DNA of 48,828 bases from a virus (taxonomy: Duplodnaviria > Heunggongvirae > Uroviricota > Caudoviricetes), in IMG/VR virus record IMGVR_UViG_3300045988_154803; one strand, written 5' to 3'. The stretch's first letter is position 1; each line of letters opens with the position of its first letter. Of the stretch, positions 8,514 through 46,524 are shown piece by piece. The position numbers were made by a program, and so were the translations under genes. A model generated the notes under the pieces. The model did no database searches and was not told the origin of the DNA. It saw only the letters and a list, made by a program, of their open reading frames with translations.

Positions 8514-9025
8514 TGATGGCCCCCGTCATTTCTGGTGCTTTTCACCGTGCGGCTTCTTAAAAACCTGCCATCACGAACAACAGACACTTCTCGTTTACCC
8601 AACCTCATTTCACGGCGGTAACATTCAGAAAATGCCTCGTCCGGCATCATATAAATGCGACGCTTCGCCTCCGTATCCAGAAGGGAACGGCTTGGGGTTA
8701 CATATAAAAACGACTCATCAATAGGGACAAAACCACGAGCAAGAATTGCTGGCAGAATGCCAGGAAGAACGCAGAAAACAGCTCCACGATGCAGCAACAT
8801 CTGGTACTCCATGACCTCCGTTATCCCCGTGACTACTGTTACGGTGTCACGTCTGTTACGGCTGGCAACCAGTCGCTGCACACGTCCAATTTTCTGATCT
8901 ACAGATAGATGTTTGCTATCGTTATCAATATGATCGATAACAAACCCTTTAATCGTTTGATCAAGGTAGTGCACCACCTTCGATTGAATCTGGTGATTAT
9001 CACCAAAGAAGGCCAGAATCATCAT
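8510..9025 (-). CDS. Hypothetical early protein
   Basis: 171-aa ORF, operon position downstream of cro-like gene. Confidence 0.4.
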   Translation of the reverse strand: MMILAFFGDNHQIQSKVVHYLDQTIKGFVIDHIDNDSKHLSVDQKIGRVQRLVASRNRRDTVTVVTGITEVMEYQMLLHRGAVFCVLPGILPAILARGFVPIDESFLYVTPSRSLLDTEAKRRIYMMPDEAFSECYRREMRLGKREVSVVRDGRFLRSRTVKSTRNDGGHQ

Positions 9026-9516
9026 TCCTCAAGCCTCCCAAGTGCTGAACGCCGGGCGTTGCTAATCTCCTTATGAATCAGCTCGATATCGCTGGAATCT
9101 TTATTCTTAAACTCCAGCATGGCAATCGCATCACGAACCTCTGAAACGGTTACGTGTGAGTGTTTCCAGCGAGCAATGAATCGCGGACCGCGTAGATTGC
9201 AACGCTCCGCAGGCATCCCCAGCTCAGAGAAAACCGCTTTCAGCCTTGATAAGCAGTTAACAGGGAGATTCCCTTTGATCTTGTTCTGCCGAACCGATGT
9301 GCCATCGCTACGCTGGCGCTGACGTTCGGCAAAATCTGCCGCCCATTGCTGGACGTTAATCCGGCCTTCCGAATACGCCACCAGCAGCGTCAGGTTATCC
9401 GCACGAGGGAATCTCTCGAAGCGATACCAGGCACCAATCAGTGATGACGTAAAGCCAAACTTTCTGGCAACACCAATTTGGCCTCCATTCTCGTCAACCC
9501 ACTCCTGAAAGGTCAT
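9022..9516 (-). CDS. Cro/YdaS-like HTH regulator (N-terminal domain) with C-terminal extension
   Basis: GGQIGVARKFGFTSSLIGAWYRFERFP resembles YdaS/Cro-type HTH; divergent from CI across operator cluster. Confidence 0.5.
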   Translation of the reverse strand: MTFQEWVDENGGQIGVARKFGFTSSLIGAWYRFERFPRADNLTLLVAYSEGRINVQQWAADFAERQRQRSDGTSVRQNKIKGNLPVNCLSRLKAVFSELGMPAERCNLRGPRFIARWKHSHVTVSEVRDAIAMLEFKNKDSSDIELIHKEISNARRSALGRLEE

Positions 9517-9534: not shown

Positions 9535-9652
9535 ACCACGATATGTGGTATTAAAACCACATATTGTGAGTTTTTCAATGGGCGAAACAAAAAATAACCT
9601 TCTATTTGTGGTCCACCTCTCGTCTTACCATGTGAAAACCACTAAATGTGGT
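9535..9652. promoter_or_regulatory. Immunity operator/promoter region: three ACCAC-N5-GTGGT-type palindromes
   Basis: ACCACGATATGTGGT (9535-9549), ACCACATATTGTGAG (9556-9570), ACCACTAAATGTGGT (9638-9652). Confidence 0.6.
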
Positions 9653-9689
9653 AATGTATAAATAACCCACCATTCACGATTGATGAGAC

Positions 9690-10346
9690 ATGAAAAGCAA
9701 CGACGAGAACATCAAGAAAGAAATAGGTCTGCGCATTCAGACTCTACGGAAACAATCCGGCATGACTGCCGGAGATCTCCAGCAAGTCACTGGAATAGGC
9801 TTAAGCACCTTGCAGAACTATGAGGCCGGATTAAGACAACCATCTATACCTGCCATCAAGAAAATCGCGCACGCCCTGAAAGCATCAGCGCCTTATATCG
9901 CGTGCTTAACAGATAACCCGTTCCCACCCCAGAATACTAACGCTCCTGTTATTCCTGGGCTTGTAGCTATAAAAAATGACATAGCATCGCACGCCGGAGA
10001 AAAGCCAGTGCTGGCGATAGAACAGGAGATTCTACGAAGCAAGAACATCAACCCATCGTCTCTGTCAGTTCTCCAGAGCAACGATGAGTTAATGTCACCA
10101 ACAATATCCCCAGGCTCCCAAGTCCTGATTAATACAGACGATACAGAGATTCATGAGGGGATCTATGCCCTTGAAGACAGAAATGGCCCGGTTGTTTTGA
10201 GGCACTGTAGAGTCATACCGGGTGACAATGCTGTTATGCTGTCAACCGAAAGGGATGCTGAAATGAACACTAAGCATCTGAATAACGAGGAATTTAAGCG
10301 TTATAAAGTTCTGGGCCGCGTAGTTAGTGTTGTCAACTGGTTATGA
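9690..10346 (+). CDS. CI-like phage repressor (XRE HTH + S24/LexA-like C-terminal domain)
   Basis: N-terminal IGLRIQTLRKQSGMTAGDLQQVTGIGLSTLQNYEAG; C-terminal domain alignable to S24 fold. Confidence 0.8.
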   Translation: MKSNDENIKKEIGLRIQTLRKQSGMTAGDLQQVTGIGLSTLQNYEAGLRQPSIPAIKKIAHALKASAPYIACLTDNPFPPQNTNAPVIPGLVAIKNDIASHAGEKPVLAIEQEILRSKNINPSSLSVLQSNDELMSPTISPGSQVLINTDDTEIHEGIYALEDRNGPVVLRHCRVIPGDNAVMLSTERDAEMNTKHLNNEEFKRYKVLGRVVSVVNWL

Positions 10347-10438
10347 TACACAGCACGGCGAAAGCCGTGCATTTCTACGCTCAAAAAAACCACGCTTTGT
10401 GGTTTTGACAACATGTGAAAGTATAAAAGAGGCTACGC

Positions 10439-12129: not shown

Positions 12130-12153
12130 ATAAAAAAGCCCCCGAAGGGGCCT
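12130..12153. terminator. Hairpin terminator (U-run on minus strand, A-run on plus)
   Basis: gcccccgaaggggc stem-loop flanked by A6 on plus strand. Confidence 0.5.
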
Positions 12154-12725
12154 AATCGCTACTTGCTGCTAATGTTTATCGTCACATTCAGAGCGTTATC
12201 AGTAATCTTCCAACCCTCCCCATGTGGCGTAAACAAAGCTCCAGTAACAACGATAAAAATACACATACAGTATTTTTTCATTGTATGGCCCTTACAGGCC
12301 GTTTCACGGCATCCCCACCGACGAAAACAACGCGAGAGCAAGCACGGCTGCTTGTGCTTGCATGTACGGCAACGGAGAATCCTCCCCTAAAGTCGGTGCC
12401 CGGGTGCGAATCGGCGGGAAGGTCCACAGGTATTTTACGATTATTTTAAGATTAGTAATAGGAAAGAAATTAAACGAAAAAACTCGTTTATTTTCACAAA
12501 ATCAGTAACCTACCCACAATCTGTGAGTTTGCAGGCACAACAAGAACCACAATTTTTTGAAGCATAATAGTGGACTATTATTACCTTTTGGGTAAAATTA
12601 ACTTGCTGCTTGTGCTTGCGTGGTTGTTTATACAACAACGTAATGCTGAAAGGACCGCGAATCCGATCAGCACGAAAGAACCGTCCTCAATAGGGCGGTT
12701 TTTTTGTTTCTGCCTACCAATAAAC

Positions 12726-12738
12726 CCACGCTATGTGG
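12726..12738. promoter_or_regulatory. Fourth CCAC-N5-GTGG operator-like palindrome
   Basis: CCACGCTATGTGG abutting candidate -35 TTGTCT. Confidence 0.5.
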
Positions 12739-12773
12739 TTGTCTCTGTTAAAATCCCGCCGTATTGACATGAA

Positions 12774-12873
12774 TGCGCCATTGGTGGACACTTTCCGAGC
12801 CGTAGCAAAATCTACGGCCGGGATTGGAACCCCGATAATCATCATGGCGCATACCGCGTTAGCGGTTTTTTTA
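12774..12873 (+). ncRNA. Candidate small RNA (~100 nt) ending at intrinsic terminator
   Basis: Candidate promoter TTGTCT-N17-TATTGA; internal hairpin ccgtagcaaaatctacgg; terminator ccgc-gtta-gcgg + T7 at 12854-12872. Confidence 0.3.
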
Positions 12874-13037
12874 TGCGTAAAGCACTGCTACACCCAAATT
12901 ATGGTGGGGCGTGCGGGGGAGTCGTAAGACTCGCCGGATTCCATGGTGACCGGTAGTTCCAACCCTGTACGTCTCACCACCCAATGATTGGAACCAGACG
13001 GTGGTGAGTATCCTTAACCTTTAAGGGAACTATCACC

Positions 13038-13229
13038 ATGACAAACTTACCCCATGACTATTACGTCAACCTCGTAAAGATCCTTCTCAAGAAAGCCTCA
13101 TACGCCGATAAACTCCGCCTGGCTGAAATCATCGAGCGCGAAGCTATGCGCATCGCCAGCAACGATAACGCTGTTTCTGACGCAAAAATCTCCCTCGTAA
13201 CCAAAGTAGTTATGGGAGGTACAAAATGA
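13038..13229 (+). CDS. Small protein upstream of antirepressor
   Basis: 63-aa ORF with stop/start overlap (ATGA) to antirepressor. Confidence 0.4.
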   Translation: MTNLPHDYYVNLVKILLKKASYADKLRLAEIIEREAMRIASNDNAVSDAKISLVTKVVMGGTK

Positions 13230-14368
13230 AAACGCTTCCGACCGTTAACACCCTACAGCCTATCCTGCATAACCAGATCCCCGTTATCACTAGTGAACTT
13301 CTGGCGCAGTTATACGGAACAAAAATCAAAAACATTTCTGATAACTTTCTGAACAACACGACGCGATTCATAGCCGGAAAGCATTACTTTAAAATTGAAA
13401 AAAACGAATTACGCGAGTTCAAGAACAGACCTGAAACAATCGGGTTAGTTGGTAAAAATGCCCGCTCCCTAATTCTCTGGACCGAACACGGAGCAGCCCG
13501 TCACGCCAAAATGCTCGAAACCGATCAGGCTTGGGATGTGTTCGAAAAACTGGAAGACTGCTATTTCAACCAGAACGCACAAACGGCCGCGACCGTAACC
13601 GTCTCACCAAACAATGCTCGTGAGGTTGTCGATACGCTCAACGCCAAACCGATGTTTTACATTAAAGTGTGCAACAACGAGCCACTCACAACCTCAGCCG
13701 ATGTTGCCCAGGCATTCAGCACCACAAACAATTCCATCGTTATGGCCATCGATGCGTTACGCATTCCTCGCACAGCTGCGGCGCGTCATTTCTTTAAAGA
13801 GCAACGACCGTTGGAAGGAAGCGACCGCGAAATAACAATCTATCGCATGACAAAAGACGGATTTACCTTGCTCATGGAAAGTATCGACGGTCCAGGCGTG
13901 AAGGATATCAAGCTGGCCTACATTGAAGCCTTTAACGCTATCAGCAGCGTGTTAAAAACACAGTACGAGCGCGATCTGGCTAAACGACTGTACCAGGAAA
14001 AAACGATTATCCGCGCGGCAACAGAGCATAATCGGCTATTAACGGAACCGAACTACAGGAAGGAACTAATCAAGGAGTTTGACAAGGCAACAGGGAAAAC
14101 CAAAGCGGCGCTAAGTCTGCCAGCAATGACTCAGGAAAATGTGATATCAGCCTTACTTCTTGATCTGCTCAGAAACGCCAGAGCACTTATCAGCTTTGAC
14201 GAAAACCTGAATCCTCAGCTCAAGCTACTACCACCGACAGGCAAAGTAGTCGACCAGGCTGATCACAACAGCATACTCAGCGTACTGGATGCAAACCTGC
14301 CAGCCAGGACACTACAGGATCTGATAAAAACATGTGCTGATAAGCTGGCACAGAAAAGCAGACCATAA
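13226..14368 (+). CDS. ant: Antirepressor-like protein (ORF6N/KilA-N-type N-terminal domain + Rha-like domain)
   Basis: N-terminal IPVITSELLAQLYGTKIKNISDNFLNNTTRFIAGKHYF; central PLTTSADVAQAFSTTNNSIVMAIDAL. Confidence 0.7.
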   Translation: MKTLPTVNTLQPILHNQIPVITSELLAQLYGTKIKNISDNFLNNTTRFIAGKHYFKIEKNELREFKNRPETIGLVGKNARSLILWTEHGAARHAKMLETDQAWDVFEKLEDCYFNQNAQTAATVTVSPNNAREVVDTLNAKPMFYIKVCNNEPLTTSADVAQAFSTTNNSIVMAIDALRIPRTAAARHFFKEQRPLEGSDREITIYRMTKDGFTLLMESIDGPGVKDIKLAYIEAFNAISSVLKTQYERDLAKRLYQEKTIIRAATEHNRLLTEPNYRKELIKEFDKATGKTKAALSLPAMTQENVISALLLDLLRNARALISFDENLNPQLKLLPPTGKVVDQADHNSILSVLDANLPARTLQDLIKTCADKLAQKSRP

Positions 14369-18732: not shown

Positions 18733-19713
18733 TTAATGTTGGAGTGATTTCCAGGTCTTTCTTAGCCTGTTATAACGCTGCTCAACGAGGGATCGTAAAT
18801 ATGCAAGGTCAGCACCTGGATACATGCCATCAGCAAATTCCTGGCTAACCTCTCTAGTGATTTGATGACGAAGTTCGGCCTCTCCCTTTTCCTGAACAAG
18901 ACGCGCAGCTCTCTCCGCTGCTTTCTGTTTTGCCTTTATCTCTCTGGCCGTCTTCCTCTGACGCCATACATTCTCCATCTGCTCCTGAATAACAATACGC
19001 TTATAATCAGCCTCCGTTATCGCTTTTTTAAGCCGTTCGCTATTCTTCGCATTGAAGTAATTAAGTTTCTGGCTAACCGCACGTCTCCATGCTTGTTCAG
19101 TAATACCAACGATTTCCAGCAGTTGATCACGAATCTCTATTTTCGCTGGCCAATACTGTTTATTCACCCGATCCCAGCGACGTTCATAATCAATAAAACC
19201 TAACGCTTTCAGTTGCGACAACGCCCTTGTACAGCGCGTTATAGACTTGTTCCCAGCTTCGGATACGGTAGACAGGCCGCAAAAATCAGCCAACGCCTCA
19301 GCACTGGCCAGAACCCGCTTAGAAATGATGTTTACATGGTGCAAAATCGCAGCAATCACAGCATTAATCGCCCGACGACGATGCTCGTTTATCCGGCGTT
19401 TCCGCTCTGACGGTTGATTAACGTAGAACGCAACCTCACACGTAAGATCACGACCATTAATGCGCTGTAAAGCATCAGATAACACCAGCGGCAGCTTGTG
19501 CGTATGGTGCTTTGGAGGCTGGAACTCCGGCGACAAATTACAAACGTAAGCTGAACGTAGAGACGGCATTGGTCTATCCATATGTTCGCTCTTGCGTCCA
19601 CGGAAAACCAACGTATAATGGGAGTTGTCGAGGCGCCCATGGATTGTTTTTGTTGGTTTTCCGTGGATGTCGCAAGAAGCCCGCAGATTTATCTGCGGGC
19701 TTTTTGTTTCCAT
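18733..19713 (-). CDS. repA: IncFII-type RepA replication initiator (RepA1-like); true start possibly internal
   Basis: RRRAINAVI...GLSTVSEAGNKSITRCTRALSQLKALGFIDY aligns by eye to R1/R100 RepA1 block RRRAIDALL...GLATESAAGKLSITRATRALTFLSELGLITY (recalled). Confidence 0.8.
   Translation of the reverse strand: METKSPQINLRASCDIHGKPTKTIHGRLDNSHYTLVFRGRKSEHMDRPMPSLRSAYVCNLSPEFQPPKHHTHKLPLVLSDALQRINGRDLTCEVAFYVNQPSERKRRINEHRRRAINAVIAAILHHVNIISKRVLASAEALADFCGLSTVSEAGNKSITRCTRALSQLKALGFIDYERRWDRVNKQYWPAKIEIRDQLLEIVGITEQAWRRAVSQKLNYFNAKNSERLKKAITEADYKRIVIQEQMENVWRQRKTAREIKAKQKAAERAARLVQEKGEAELRHQITREVSQEFADGMYPGADLAYLRSLVEQRYNRLRKTWKSLQH
19679..19710 (+). terminator. Plus-strand intrinsic terminator antisense to repA 5' region (candidate CopA-like RNA 3' end)
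   Basis: gcccgcag-atttat-ctgcgggc followed by TTTTTGTTT. Confidence 0.4.
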
Positions 19714-19894
19714 ATCTGGTCATTTTCCAACCAGACACCCACAATCATAACCACGTTACGTGGTTTTCAGAGAACTCTACCACAACACTTTCGGTCATGC
19801 ACGAAGTCTCTCACTGATCGAACGATAATCCACCAGTAAAAGGATCTAAATTGGATCTCGTTTTGCGAGCATCATACTACTGGCCTAACTCCAG

Positions 19895-22495: not shown

Positions 22496-24814
22496 TTAAA
22501 TACTCCCCGCGTTATACCACGTCCCATTAATGCAATACTGAATTGGCCTTGCCTGTGTTGTATCAATTAATTCATCACGGTTTCCGTTAACTGAACCCGT
22601 AACGACATAACCTGACCTGTCAGACCAGCCGGGGCCATTCCATGTCTGAACAGATGACAGACCGCCAAGGCGAATACCTGTAATAAACCTTGAGTTACAT
22701 TCTGCCTGCGTATATGCACCAACATCTCCCGCAGAGGGTTTGCGGGTTGTGGTGTAAAACTCTGACCAGTCAGCTTCAAAGCCATAACCATCACGCGCTG
22801 AACGATAAAAGATTCCGCCATTTCTGTAATTCACGCGGAACTGTGCAGCAGGGCAGCTCCCCGTATTCATATTGAAGTGGAGGATTAATGTCGATGCGCC
22901 ACCAATATTTGCGTTATAGACCCCGCTATTCCAGTTCCAGCCAACAGCTTTATCATTTCCGACAGTGCTTCCTGTTTGCCCTAAAGCAAATGCAGGTTGT
23001 TGATTTTTCGTGTTGTAGTCTCGTCGCCAGCCAGGAGCGTAAGCATCACCATGATTAATATAAGTGAATTGAGCGTTAGTAATTCCTCCACCGCTGGACG
23101 TGCTCGGCGTGGTAACGCGTATGGTCATTGCGCCGCGAGTGCCAATAACTTCCACCACAGCACCTGCAAGACAAATATTTCCGCAACCTGTATCTGTAAT
23201 GACCTTATTATTTGCATAAGCCCATGAGCCTTTGCACATCCAGTAAGGATGGTTAAATGCTCCCTGACTCTCCAGCCACGAAATAAATTGCGCGGTTGTC
23301 CAGACCTGACTATCGCCACCAATATCCAGCCATGCGCTATATGCGCGGCAGGCCCCAATATTTTTGGTGAAGGTATCTTTTCCCGGAATATCTGCGCCGT
23401 TCTGGTTTTTCTGTAATGCGCCAGAAGCCTGATTTACCGTTTCCTGTAAACCGAGGTATTCGATAACGGCAGCAACGGTCGATTTCGCAAGAATATCCCG
23501 CCCGACTTTTGTCAGGGTTGCCAGGCTGGCGACATCATTCCCCGTAAAATACGGAAACTTGTCTGCCGCAGTAGCAAGCCCGGCCAGCGCCGTCAGGGTG
23601 GCATCTTTCGGTTGCTTACCCGCAAGCGCGTTAGTCATGGTGGTCGCAAAATTCGGGTCGTTTCCCAGCGCCGCCGCTAACTCGTTCAGCGTATTCAGTG
23701 CGTCAGGTGACGAGTCCACGAGGGCAGCGATCGCAGCCATAACGAAAGCCGTGCTTGCGATTTGGGTATTATTCGTTCCCTGTCGCGCAGTTGGCGTTGT
23801 TGGCGTTCCGGTCAACGCAGGACTGTTTAAGGGCGCTTTCTTGTTCGTTTCATCCATTACCGCCTTGACCGCTTTCGATGTCGCGGCCAGTGTTTCAGAC
23901 GTGCTGTTGGTGGAACTACTGAGCTGAGTTATTCCCCTTACAGTCAGTGAAGCTACAGGCACATTTGTTATCTGCTCCCACGAATGCGTGTGATTGGACG
24001 GAGCCTTTCCGGCCGCAAGATCATACGCTGCCTTAACAGCCTTTGGTGTTGCTGCTAGCGTTTCAGACGTGCTGTTGGTGGCACTACTGAGCTGAACAAT
24101 CCCTTTTCGCGCTGTGGTAGCGTCCTGTGCGGTGTATTTGCCATTAGCCAGGTCATATGCTGCCTTAACAGCCTTAGGCGTCGCAGCAAGCGTTTCAGAC
24201 GAGCTATTGGTGGCGCTGCTAAGTTGAACAAAGCCTTTTGAGGTTAAAGTTGCATCAGGATGATTACGTGATTGTTCATGTTTCACAATGGCTTGCTTAA
24301 GCCGCTTTGCTGAAACAGCAAGGGAATCATCTGTACCGTCATCAATTTCTTGTTCATTGGCAAATCTTGCAACCCCAACAACAGTTTCGGTTGCGGGAGG
24401 ATTAATAAACTCAATATCACCAAATGTAATATTTTTAGTATCAAGAGTCTTGATTGCTATGTCACTTGATATTAAAGCAATAGTAGATGATGCTTTATTT
24501 ATTATTGCTTGTTCTTGCGAGTATACAGCAAACAACGTTCCCTTATTTGTATACAATCCTATTGTATGGACAACATACTCATCTTTACTATCATCCTTCG
24601 CCGTTACATGAATTGTATCAGGGGAAACAACTTTGCCACCTATTGTGGTAAGTCGTTTTATTTCGTTTGTTATATTTGTTTGTGAAGTTGACGTGACATA
24701 ATATCTACTACCTAAACCAACAGAAACAATCTCAACTTTATTTGTTCCTGTTTTGTTGGCATTAACCAGCTCCTGACGCCCGGCGTCAGTCATCGTAAAT
24801 AATAATTTACTCAC
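22496..24814 (-). CDS. Tail fibre protein (constant N-terminal ~450 aa outside, variable C-terminus inside invertible segment)
   Basis: 772 aa; repeated SSATNS(T/S)SETLAATPKAVKAAYD collar-like motifs; crossover site lies inside the ORF. Confidence 0.85.
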   Translation of the reverse strand: MSKLLFTMTDAGRQELVNANKTGTNKVEIVSVGLGSRYYVTSTSQTNITNEIKRLTTIGGKVVSPDTIHVTAKDDSKDEYVVHTIGLYTNKGTLFAVYSQEQAIINKASSTIALISSDIAIKTLDTKNITFGDIEFINPPATETVVGVARFANEQEIDDGTDDSLAVSAKRLKQAIVKHEQSRNHPDATLTSKGFVQLSSATNSSSETLAATPKAVKAAYDLANGKYTAQDATTARKGIVQLSSATNSTSETLAATPKAVKAAYDLAAGKAPSNHTHSWEQITNVPVASLTVRGITQLSSSTNSTSETLAATSKAVKAVMDETNKKAPLNSPALTGTPTTPTARQGTNNTQIASTAFVMAAIAALVDSSPDALNTLNELAAALGNDPNFATTMTNALAGKQPKDATLTALAGLATAADKFPYFTGNDVASLATLTKVGRDILAKSTVAAVIEYLGLQETVNQASGALQKNQNGADIPGKDTFTKNIGACRAYSAWLDIGGDSQVWTTAQFISWLESQGAFNHPYWMCKGSWAYANNKVITDTGCGNICLAGAVVEVIGTRGAMTIRVTTPSTSSGGGITNAQFTYINHGDAYAPGWRRDYNTKNQQPAFALGQTGSTVGNDKAVGWNWNSGVYNANIGGASTLILHFNMNTGSCPAAQFRVNYRNGGIFYRSARDGYGFEADWSEFYTTTRKPSAGDVGAYTQAECNSRFITGIRLGGLSSVQTWNGPGWSDRSGYVVTGSVNGNRDELIDTTQARPIQYCINGTWYNAGSI
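23441..23466. repeat. Right inversion crossover site (gix/hix-like)
   Basis: TTCCTGTAAACCGAGGTATTCGATAA, close to Mu gixL as recalled. Confidence 0.85.
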
Positions 24815-27943: not shown

Positions 27944-28945
27944 TTAATACCCATTAATTACTCTTCGGACATCAATCGAGGTGGTATAACCACTAGCCCC
28001 AATTGAATGCACAGCTTTCGATATAAGATATTTTCCAGAAAATGAACCGAATCCGTCCAGATTTATAGTTACACCAGCTACCAATCTGGTGTCTCCAACC
28101 AATACTAAAGATCCTGTATTTTGATATCTATTTTTAAGCCGCAAAGCAGCCTTTGCCTTACGTTTTGCTTCATCTAAATTAGCTACCAGTTTTCTTATCT
28201 TAAGATTCGACCCTTCTTCTACGGATGGATCTACCCAAGTATACGAAAGCGACTTTCTTTTTTTAGGTACGCGATATTTGCACGTGCAACTTTTATACAA
28301 ATCTGTAGATTGTGTGCTAAAGCTATATCTGATTATCTCATCAATACCTAACGTAAGCGTAGCGATAGGATCTTTTTGCTCAAACATCTCTTGAGCAAAT
28401 ATTATTAATTGGCTATCAGTGACCTTTAACGACAACCCTTCATCCTGGCATAGTCGATGGAGAAATTTTAAATCGCTTTCCTCCATTTGATCTTCACGCG
28501 CATAATATGGATTACTATCACCATCAATAAGAAACAACAGTTCAAGGTTAGCTAATTTAGCTATAGAGGTTGCTATATCTTTAAGAGTTGTTTTTTCCCA
28601 TGCATTACTTTTTAAATCACGTCTAATGCCTGATGAAACAGGAACAGAAACAGCAGTCACCTCAACAACAGAAGGTGGTCCAGAGCAAGTTATGCCATCT
28701 ACCTGGAATTTCCCGCACTCAAGGACGATTTGATTTATAGGCTTAAAGCTCAAATCAATAAAATCACCCTTTTTAGGTGTCCAGTCTCCAGACCATTTCC
28801 CATCATCATTTTTTAATATAATAGAAATATCATCGACCTGACCATCTTCATTATCTGTATAAGACATTGACAAAACATCAGGTGACATATGAGCGGTAAT
28901 ATTTACATTCTGATATATAACATCAAAAAGCGTTTTACGTAACAC
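27944..28945 (-). CDS. Tail protein gpD-like (late control D / baseplate hub)
   Basis: 333 aa; position between gpX-like and spike. Confidence 0.7.
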   Translation of the reverse strand: MLRKTLFDVIYQNVNITAHMSPDVLSMSYTDNEDGQVDDISIILKNDDGKWSGDWTPKKGDFIDLSFKPINQIVLECGKFQVDGITCSGPPSVVEVTAVSVPVSSGIRRDLKSNAWEKTTLKDIATSIAKLANLELLFLIDGDSNPYYAREDQMEESDLKFLHRLCQDEGLSLKVTDSQLIIFAQEMFEQKDPIATLTLGIDEIIRYSFSTQSTDLYKSCTCKYRVPKKRKSLSYTWVDPSVEEGSNLKIRKLVANLDEAKRKAKAALRLKNRYQNTGSLVLVGDTRLVAGVTINLDGFGSFSGKYLISKAVHSIGASGYTTSIDVRRVINGY

Positions 28946-35161: not shown

Positions 35162-35502
35162 ATCGGCATTCCTCTGTTAGTATTAACAGTGAGAGTTATT
35201 TCCAATACACCAACATTATCTGATACTTCATCAATAATATAATTTTTACCGTTGATTTTCATTGACTGGTCTTTGACAGGGAGAACAGGAAAATCTTTTC
35301 TTGAAACAAATAATATTATTTGCCCCTGATTTATTCCCTCTGCAAACTCAGCATATGAGCGTTTATTCCGCTCATGAATAAGGTCTGTATCAATAACGGC
35401 AAGGATATCCTTGCCGTCTATGTTATATGTATCGGCAAACTCTTTTTCATTGAGGAATATTGCAGAAATATCTTGCGCTATAACCTCTTTGAAGGAGTTC
35501 AT
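35158..35502 (-). CDS. Putative head-tail joining protein
   Basis: 114-aa ORF; position. Confidence 0.35.
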   Translation of the reverse strand: MNSFKEVIAQDISAIFLNEKEFADTYNIDGKDILAVIDTDLIHERNKRSYAEFAEGINQGQIILFVSRKDFPVLPVKDQSMKINGKNYIIDEVSDNVGVLEITLTVNTNRGMPI

Positions 35503-45907: not shown

Positions 45908-46524
45908 ACCTCCCCAGCCAGCAATGCGGATACAAATCCGATATAGCTGCCATTATCATCAACATAACGAGACACCGCGCAGTCAAAACGATCCGCTTCC
46001 TCATCCGTTGCCGGGATTTTATGACCTCCAAATGACAGGTACTGAACTTTTACGCCTGATTTGGCCTCATCCTTCTCAAATGGGATATCCATACCCTCTG
46101 TGTCATCGTAGACCGCCGCACTCAATAAGTTATCCAGTTCGCGCTGAGTAAAACCAATTGAGTCCAGAGCAAAATCATCGGCCGCAAGATCTGCAAGCTC
46201 CGCGCTTAACAGCTCTTCATCCCAACCAGCATTCAGCGGAATACGGTTGTCGGCCAGACGATATGCCTTCTTCTGATTCTCCGTTAGCCCTTCCAGAACA
46301 ATGCAGGGAACATCATCCATCCCCAACTGAGTGGCCGCAGCAATTCGACCATGACCAGCAATTACAACGTTGTTCTCGTCTATCAGGATCGGATTAGTCC
46401 ATCCGTACTCCTGTATGCTGGCAACAATCTGATCTACCTGCTCCACGGAGTGTGTGCGAGCGTTCTTTTCATAACCAATCAACACAGAAAGTGGTAAAGA
46501 AACCACATTAAGATGTTTTGTCAT
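45901..46524 (-). CDS. ParB-like nuclease domain protein (paralog 2)
   Basis: ...TNPILIDENNVVIAGHGRIAAA...; overlaps start of fusion gene (coupled). Confidence 0.8.
   Translation of the reverse strand: MTKHLNVVSLPLSVLIGYEKNARTHSVEQVDQIVASIQEYGWTNPILIDENNVVIAGHGRIAAATQLGMDDVPCIVLEGLTENQKKAYRLADNRIPLNAGWDEELLSAELADLAADDFALDSIGFTQRELDNLLSAAVYDDTEGMDIPFEKDEAKSGVKVQYLSFGGHKIPATDEEADRFDCAVSRYVDDNGSYIGFVSALLAGEVC

Follow-up and report, generated by a model that had tools for sequence, protein, structure and literature searches.

The stretch of DNA analysed here (48,828 nucleotides, hereafter the window) contains six members of a palindrome family built on ACCAC-N5-GTGGT. From their sequence and placement, it is rather probable that all six serve as operators of a CI-type repressor: three at the immunity switch, one behind cI, one at the plasmid replication gene repA and one at the module of an antirepressor-like gene (ant). 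One repressor could in this way couple lysogeny, plasmid copy number and antirepressor-based induction, a coupling relevant to the stability and mobilisation of the plasmids concerned, and the six sites form a map of it that is cheaply testable.

A common family of phage-plasmids

The window is a ~48.8-kb Escherichia coli phage-plasmid that belongs to the myoviruses and encodes an IncFII-type RepA together with a ParA. Its immunity region is 99% identical to ~48-kb E. coli plasmids, e.g., p48 of strain 1428, and shows 97% identity to the Yersinia phages vB_YpM_39, 41, and 44. An annotated plasmid of 99% identity encodes RepA, ParA, toxin-antitoxin genes, and a complete set of myovirus morphogenesis and lysis genes. 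It is the presence of RepA and ParA next to the full myovirus gene set in this annotated twin that identifies the window as a phage-plasmid.

Of 5,426 complete E. coli genomes, 135 contain related sequence, and 70 of these have at least 80% of the 4.1-kb immunity region. Members are also known from Salmonella, Klebsiella, Citrobacter, and Yokenella, and some are Yersinia phages that form plaques. Homologues of the CI-like repressor with 60-66% identity are encoded on syntenic ~46-49-kb contigs from Citrobacter, Klebsiella, Yokenella, and Salmonella. The family is common and its genes are annotated almost all as hypothetical; literature searches by phage name and accession returned no description of the family or of its regulation.

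Six palindromes in the unannotated DNA of the replicon

The window contains four exact matches to ACCAC-N5-GTGGT, where dinucleotide-preserving shuffles predict 0.02, and six matches to the core CCAC-N5-GTGG, where 0.41 are expected. To score candidate sites, a 21-bp weight matrix was trained only on the sites of relatives whose CI is 60-66% identical, and the window was then scanned with it. Six sites scored between 21.3 and 31.0 bits and the next best match reached 11.7 bits. The score of the site at the ant module, 21.9 bits, was reached by none of 200 shuffled windows. The six sites, by start of the core, are:

19751, O-rep, at repA: 31.0 bits, the best score
10390, O-distal, behind cI: 29.4 bits
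9536, O1, at the switch: 27.3 bits
9639, O3, at the switch: 25.4 bits
12726, O-ant, at the ant module: 21.9 bits, above O2
9557, O2, at the switch: 21.3 bits

All six lie within the unannotated 14.5% of the replicon (P about 1e-5). As seen from the flanks, the full consensus extends beyond the 15-mer and reads AAAACCAC-N5-GTGGTTTT. O1 to O3 and the post-cI and repA sites are kept in six lineages with a 60-66% identical CI, with the arms fixed and the N5 free, and wherever the sequence of a relative extends far enough, the two distal sites (10389-10403 and 19750-19764) are conserved in it. Observed directly are the sites with their statistics, the degree to which they are conserved, and where they lie with respect to conserved promoter-like elements.

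A preliminary description of this DNA had listed three palindromes between cI and the cro-like gene (9535-9549, 9556-9570, and 9638-9652) and a fourth at 12726-12738, and all are present in the sequence at these places. The pattern ascribed to them, ACCAC-N5-GTGGT, is perfect at 9535-9549 and 9638-9652, whereas 9556-9570 deviates from it by two mismatches and 12725-12739 by one. The supposed fourth copy at 12.7 kb does belong to the family, albeit as one of six: the set of four had missed two perfect palindromes, 10389-10403 and 19750-19764, which are the strongest distal sites. The weight-matrix scan of the whole contig that had been proposed as a check recovered the 12.7-kb site and the switch sites, all among the six.

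Several lesser matches were rejected. A weak pair at 46481 and 46502 (46481-46516), with the 21-bp spacing seen between O1 and O2, is located inside a ParB-like coding sequence and reaches only 6-11 bits. The start codon of that coding sequence is ATG 46525; PGAP has a later start in the twin plasmid. Two further matches were treated as chance: one at 24635 (core 24636), inside the tail-fibre gene and scoring 5.6 bits, and one at 28665, inside the late-control-D gene and absent from the 25 best weight-matrix hits.

A terminator scan flags 9537-9568 and 12726-12738 as a hairpin followed by a T-run, which would fit palindromes that act in RNA, as hairpins or terminators, instead of binding a protein as DNA. 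We consider this extremely improbable: the stems are just 5-8 bp long and A/T-flanked, the flanks are symmetric as in a site for a dimer, the sites occupy the spacers of predicted promoters and flank divergent ones, and real GC-rich terminators adjoin two of them.

The divergent switch between cI and the cro-position gene

Three of the six sites are found in the 173-bp gap between cI and a divergent gene of 164 codons. The features of this region are:

9022..9516, minus strand: cro-position gene, 164 aa, first gene of the leftward early operon, cro-like by position only
9535..9549: O1, ACCACGATATGTGGT, perfect, at about -6 to +9 of the predicted leftward promoter PR, its position kept in all relatives
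9550..9578, minus strand: predicted PR of the cro-like early operon, TTGAAA 9578-9573, 17-bp spacer, TTTAAT 9555-9550, read from sequence
9556..9570: O2, ACCACATATTGTGAG, right arm degenerate (GTGAG), filling the 17-bp spacer of PR
9638..9652: O3, ACCACTAAATGTGGT, perfect, in the spacer of a weak promoter towards cI
9657-9662, rightward: TATAAA, the -10 of the predicted weak cI promoter, which is without a -35
9690..10346, plus strand: cI, CI-like repressor, 218 aa, with an XRE helix-turn-helix (HTH) and a weak S24-like C-terminal domain

With cI on the plus strand and the 164-aa gene on the minus strand, the three intergenic palindromes read as a classic divergent cI/cro switch arrangement. 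O1 begins at the base next to the PR -10, and O1 and O2 are spaced 21 bp from centre to centre. In the relatives, the three intergenic sites keep the same distance from the cI ATG (-51 to -53 for O3), with unchanged CCAC/GTGG arms and diverged spacers and surrounding DNA; the counterpart of O2 is ACCAC-N5-GTGGG at the same place. The relatives also retain the TTG of the PR -35, the 17-bp spacing, and T(T/A)AAT. The promoters PR, PRM, and PrepA are readings of sequence that mostly fail a consensus filter, and a consensus promoter scan lists neither PR (its -10 has no A at position 2) nor the cI promoter (it has no -35).

We infer from these patterns which protein binds the sites, where the promoters lie, and in which direction and how strongly each regulatory effect described in the following would act. 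CI dimers bound cooperatively to O1 and O2, two helical turns apart, would silence the leftward early (lytic) genes, and the position of O3 in the spacer of the cI promoter would allow autoregulation of cI.

CI as the probable reader of the sites

The cI product belongs to PHROG 4 (transcriptional, CI-like repressor) and matches the Pfam family HTH_3 (4.5e-11); its match to Peptidase_S24 stays below the cut-off (18.5 bits compared to 23.3). Its first ~75 residues, which include the HTH, are nearly invariant among relatives, and the C-terminal domain drifts. The near-invariance of the HTH fits an unchanged DNA specificity, as the half-sites are invariant too. For the cro-position protein we found no match in Pfam or the PDB; it falls into PHROG 7452 (unknown function), is 74-76% conserved among relatives, and may bind the same palindromes as well. 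Because CI and the cro-position protein are both conserved, covariation cannot tell which of them reads the sites. A heteroimmune relative was sought by a CI search, by ParA-anchored scans of viral and metagenome contigs, and by two scans of genome contigs, and none was found: the searches returned the same specificity or nothing.

Could the palindromes be read mainly by a protein other than CI, i.e., the 164-aa cro-position protein or a host factor? The former is conserved as much as the HTH domain of CI, the hybrid elements ACCAC-N5-GAAGG described below hint at a second specificity, and in phiKO2 and PY54 the site preferences of CB and Cro differ (PMC4997575). Nevertheless, we judge such a reading quite improbable, since three sites over divergent cI/cro promoters are a hallmark of CI operators and since an invariant CI HTH next to a drifting C-terminal domain is what matches the invariant half-sites. 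Counting further against a host factor, we know of none with an ACCAC-N5-GTGGT motif.

A conserved single site behind cI

The first of the two perfect distal palindromes follows cI:

10389..10403: O-distal, aaaaACCACGCTTTGTGGTttt, perfect, 43 bp after the cI stop codon

It is located past the GC-rich terminator hairpin of cI and 35 bp ahead of the next open reading frame. Every relative has it, at +703 to +706 from the cI ATG and with a variable N5. A promoter beneath the site was considered and rejected, as the candidate elements TTGACA (10405-10410) and TATAAA (10422-10427) are only 11 bp apart. The site may be an auxiliary operator, most likely a partner for looping or cooperativity like lambda OL.

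A candidate operator at the repA promoter

The best-scoring palindrome of the window is found upstream of repA:

18733..19713, minus strand: repA, IncFII_repA family, annotated as RepA by PGAP in the 99% identical plasmid and matching PF02387 in relatives
19592-19705, plus strand: antisense RNA opposite the repA leader (RNA ~19627-19705), with TTGCGT, a 16-bp spacer and TATAAT, two hairpins and a terminator at 19680-19705
19750..19764: O-rep, ataACCACGTTACGTGGTttt, perfect, at about +4 to +18 (centre about +11) of the predicted repA promoter
19774..19782, minus strand: predicted repA promoter, extended -10 TGgTAGAGT (19782-19774), read from sequence

O-rep is located upstream of repA in all five lineages reaching that position, and the extended -10, as TGnTAGAGT, is kept in the window and in L002, L005, L009, and L010. 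The consensus promoter scan does not list this promoter. PHROG 7060 matches RepA residues 54-326, and the true start of repA is probably near 19583. The antisense RNA matched no Rfam family; by analogy with IncFII replicons, it would exert a CopA-like control. CI bound at about +11 of the repA promoter would hold down plasmid replication in the prophage and release it on induction.

The ant-module site

The remaining site lies 3 kb from the switch, ahead of an operon of small RNAs and an antirepressor-like gene:

12725..12739: O-ant, aaaCCCACGCTATGTGGTtgt, centre 12732, i.e., -67 from the 5' end of isrK, 21.9 bits
12764..12792, plus strand: predicted promoter PisrK of the isrK-C4-orf63-ant operon, TTGACA 12764-12769, 17-bp spacer, GACACT 12787-12792
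12799..12872, plus strand: IsrK-like sRNA, Rfam RF01394, 72.5 bits, with its own terminator at 12853-12872
12897..12984, plus strand: C4-type antisense RNA, Rfam RF01695, 84.3 bits
13038-13229, plus strand: 63-aa open reading frame between the C4 RNA and the antirepressor-like gene
13226-14368, plus strand: antirepressor-like gene with ORF6N and Rha domains (Pfam ORF6N 1.1e-20, Phage_pRha 2.7e-12) and matches to many anti-repressor PHROGs

O-ant reads CCACGCTATGTGG at 12726-12738 and, as a 15-mer, CCCACGCTATGTGGT at 12725-12739, i.e., CCCAC-N5-GTGGT with a mismatch in the outermost base. The same deviation, C for A at the outermost base of the arm, is also seen in O1 and O2 of relatives, and judged by its letters O-ant is a bona fide member of the family. 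The Rfam isrK match begins at 12799, which is also the start predicted for PisrK, and the promoter is kept in all relatives with isrK. The site had been described as abutting a candidate promoter; in fact, 24 bases separate its right end from the -35 of the conserved TTGACA/17/GACACT, and it does not overlap the promoter at all. A search of the promoter region for a second full or half CI site over PisrK found none.

The arms of O-ant are conserved well beyond their surroundings. In a diverged lineage (L005, L008, and L010), a counterpart of 17-21 bits, AAAACCAC-AATG(C/T)-GTGAT, is likewise centred at -67. Between the two lineages, 8 of 10 arm bases are identical, compared to one of the five spacer bases and 7 of the 24 bases down to the -35. 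A comparison of ~20 close relatives, taken from collections of phages, viral contigs, and metagenomes, shows arms without a single change, whereas variation affects the first base of the spacer, the flank on the right, the bases just ahead of the -35, and the entire upstream context. Three unrelated upstream sequences are joined to the module, and the mosaic breakpoints fall immediately left of O-ant. The site is absent from L002, L003, L012, and L031, which have other ant-locus architectures: L002 combines the same isrK promoter with other upstream DNA, and the other three have another promoter. This absence indicates that the family does not require O-ant.

These data bear on whether the 12.7-kb palindrome is a functionless chance match or relic, with only the switch, post-cI, and repA sites being real operators. 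The palindrome exists in one copy that departs from the pattern at one base, it is missing from several relatives, its position is atypical for a repressor, and the two lineages may have inherited it together with the promoter module. On the other hand, its 21.9 bits were not matched in shuffled genomes and stand far from the next real match at 11.7 bits; its arms are conserved where spacer and flanks have fallen to random-level identity between lineages; and it is kept exactly at the edge of three different upstream replacements. We therefore regard a chance or relic origin as rather improbable.

Control of the ant operon by CI is plausible from the sequence. The proposal that one repressor governs both immunity regions is borne out as far as family membership of the site, its linkage to the promoter module, and the counterpart at -67 are concerned; simple occlusion of the promoter is not indicated. 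Indeed, a site centred at -67 and located upstream of the -35 makes direct occlusion unlikely, and a single site without a promoter-proximal partner is an unusual position for a repressor. CI may bind O-ant without repressing ant, with the site acting as a looping anchor, as an affinity sink, or by stimulation of PisrK that promotes synthesis of the IsrK and C4 RNAs. This reading draws on the location of the site, which lies wholly upstream of the -35 and has no companion over the promoter, on the post-cI site, which likewise has no convincing promoter beneath it, and on the C4-type RNAs, which share a transcript with their target and are required in the lysogen (PMC8198154, PMC4825925). We still think it unlikely: -67 is half a helical turn off the class I activator positions (-61.5 and -71.5), oligomerisation of this CI is hypothetical, and an operon of this type is under repression by the primary repressor in P1 (PMC8198154).

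In the scheme that we favour, a CI dimer at -67 would most likely damp or tune transcription of the antirepressor operon, either through cooperative or looped contacts with other operators or by interference upstream of the -35; even stimulation would be possible. The C4 and IsrK RNAs would additionally hold off translation of ant. The outcome would be a feedback loop in which CI lowers or tunes transcription of the ant operon, Ant inactivates CI, and the C4 and IsrK RNAs gate translation.

Upstream of the module, the window contains a ryfA/TimP-type small-toxin RNA (12132-12427, minus strand; Rfam, 138.5 bits) with a 38-aa hydrophobic open reading frame (MKKYCMCIFIVV...). A divergent, terminated sRNA at ~12605-12711 on the plus strand has a 5' end, GCTGCTTGTGCTTGC, that is perfectly complementary to the ryfA RNA at 12346-12360. 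Together, the two RNAs are probably a type I toxin-antitoxin pair for plasmid maintenance. A sub-threshold match to the operator matrix at 12513-12527 (CCCACAATCTGTGAG, 10.3 bits) is kept in close relatives only and was rejected; it overlaps a predicted plus-strand promoter, TTCACA/16/CACAAT at 12493-12520, between the ryfA locus and its sRNA.

Probable induction through the antirepressor

The S24-like domain of CI appears to be without the Ser/Lys dyad of its family: in DELMSPTISPGSQVLI (DELM) a Leu stands at the Ser position, and in LRHC an Arg stands at the Lys position, with the dyad residues placed by motif alignment. Aligning the C-terminal domain to LexA and lambda CI, with MAFFT and hhalign in the case of LexA, was unreliable or uninformative. 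Both the Leu and the Arg are invariant in the relatives. A search for a LexA box (CTGT-N8-ACAG, at most one mismatch) near ant found none in the window or in the relatives, and control of ant by LexA was rejected for this reason. The only perfect LexA-box core in the window, CTGTTAGTATTAACAG at 35174-35189, is inside a coding sequence of the head/tail region and is probably due to chance. The lack of a LexA box near ant, together with Leu and Arg at the dyad positions, fits an antirepressor-dependent induction. By analogy with N15 and P1, induction probably runs via the antirepressor.

Among the relatives L002-L012, the C-terminal domain of CI is strongly diverged and the ant loci are mosaic, with ORF6N plus Rha, Rha only, or neither. 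This suggests that the C-terminal domain of the repressor co-varies with the type of antirepressor.

Hybrid elements sharing one half-site

Besides the six palindromes, a hybrid element, ACCAC-N5-GAAGG(TT), occurs on the minus strand at 9598-9612 and at 2958-2972 and is kept in all relatives. The first copy is located between O2 and O3, ~62 bp upstream of the predicted PR start, and the second ~61 bp upstream of the start of a candidate late promoter (TTGTTT 2939-2934, 17-bp spacer, TAGTGT 2916-2911). Downstream of this promoter come a short leader, then a strong terminator (2854-2827), and finally the holin gene. The equal orientation and distance of the two copies suggest either that a second regulator has one half-site in common with CI or that the region exerts late control of the Q type.

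A bolder reading combines a positive or architectural role of CI at -67 of PisrK with a second regulator acting at the hybrid elements, which would amount to a combinatorial code based on one half-site. We regard this reading as highly speculative and very doubtful. If true, it would tie early, late, replication, and antirepressor control to one half-site, and CI itself would drive the IsrK and C4 RNAs.

Comparison with known systems

The switch resembles lambda OR in its divergent cI and cro-position genes, in three similar palindromes placed over the predicted divergent promoters, in two adjacent sites on one helical face, and in a further distant site that could pair with them. It differs from lambda in the operator, here a 15-bp core, ACCAC-N5-GTGGT, with A/T tails; in the S24-like domain, here below the Pfam cut-off and apparently without the catalytic Ser and Lys; in the cro-position protein, here 164 aa long and of no recognisable family; and in the distant site, here a single one 0.75 kb away with no evident promoter.

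In N15 and phiKO2, copy number is lowered by the CB repressor, which binds OL operators located at the promoter of repA (PMC4997575). Common to these phages and the window are a plasmid prophage, a repressor without self-cleavage residues (apparently so in the window), a separate antirepressor locus, and an operator at the repA promoter, for which the candidate here is the best-scoring site (31.0 bits) and is found in the window and four other lineages. In contrast to N15, the replicon here is circular and, in place of the multidomain RepA, has a RepA of the IncFII type plus an antisense RNA; there is one repA operator and not two, the consensus is unrelated, and the phage is a myovirus.

The operator of P1 at its immunity operon overlaps a promoter. 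The arrangement here shares with P1/P7 immI a C4-family RNA upstream of a small open reading frame and an antirepressor gene on the same strand, and a candidate operator for the primary repressor at the promoter module of the operon, which would link both immunity regions. The c4-icd-ant operon of P1 is a target of repression by C1 (PMC8198154). Differences from P1 are the centre of the site at -67, the IsrK-type sRNA ahead of the C4 RNA, and a repressor of the XRE/CI type instead of C1.

The isrK-orf45-anrP locus of Gifsy-1 consists of a promoter, the IsrK sRNA with a leaky terminator, a stable RNA, a small open reading frame, and the antirepressor gene (PMC4825925). The same gene order, including an IsrK with its own terminator, can be read from the window. 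For the Gifsy-1 promoter, that paper describes no operator of the prophage repressor; the module of the window resides on a plasmid-prophage and adjoins a ryfA-type toxin locus.

Judged by analogy, every element of the proposed circuit has a precedent: the tripartite operator in lambda, repA control in N15, the coupling of immunity regions in P1, and the IsrK module in Gifsy-1. Specific here are the sequence of the operator, the single operator at an IncFII-type repA that is also under antisense-RNA control, the universally conserved single site past cI, and the placement of the ant-module site at -67.
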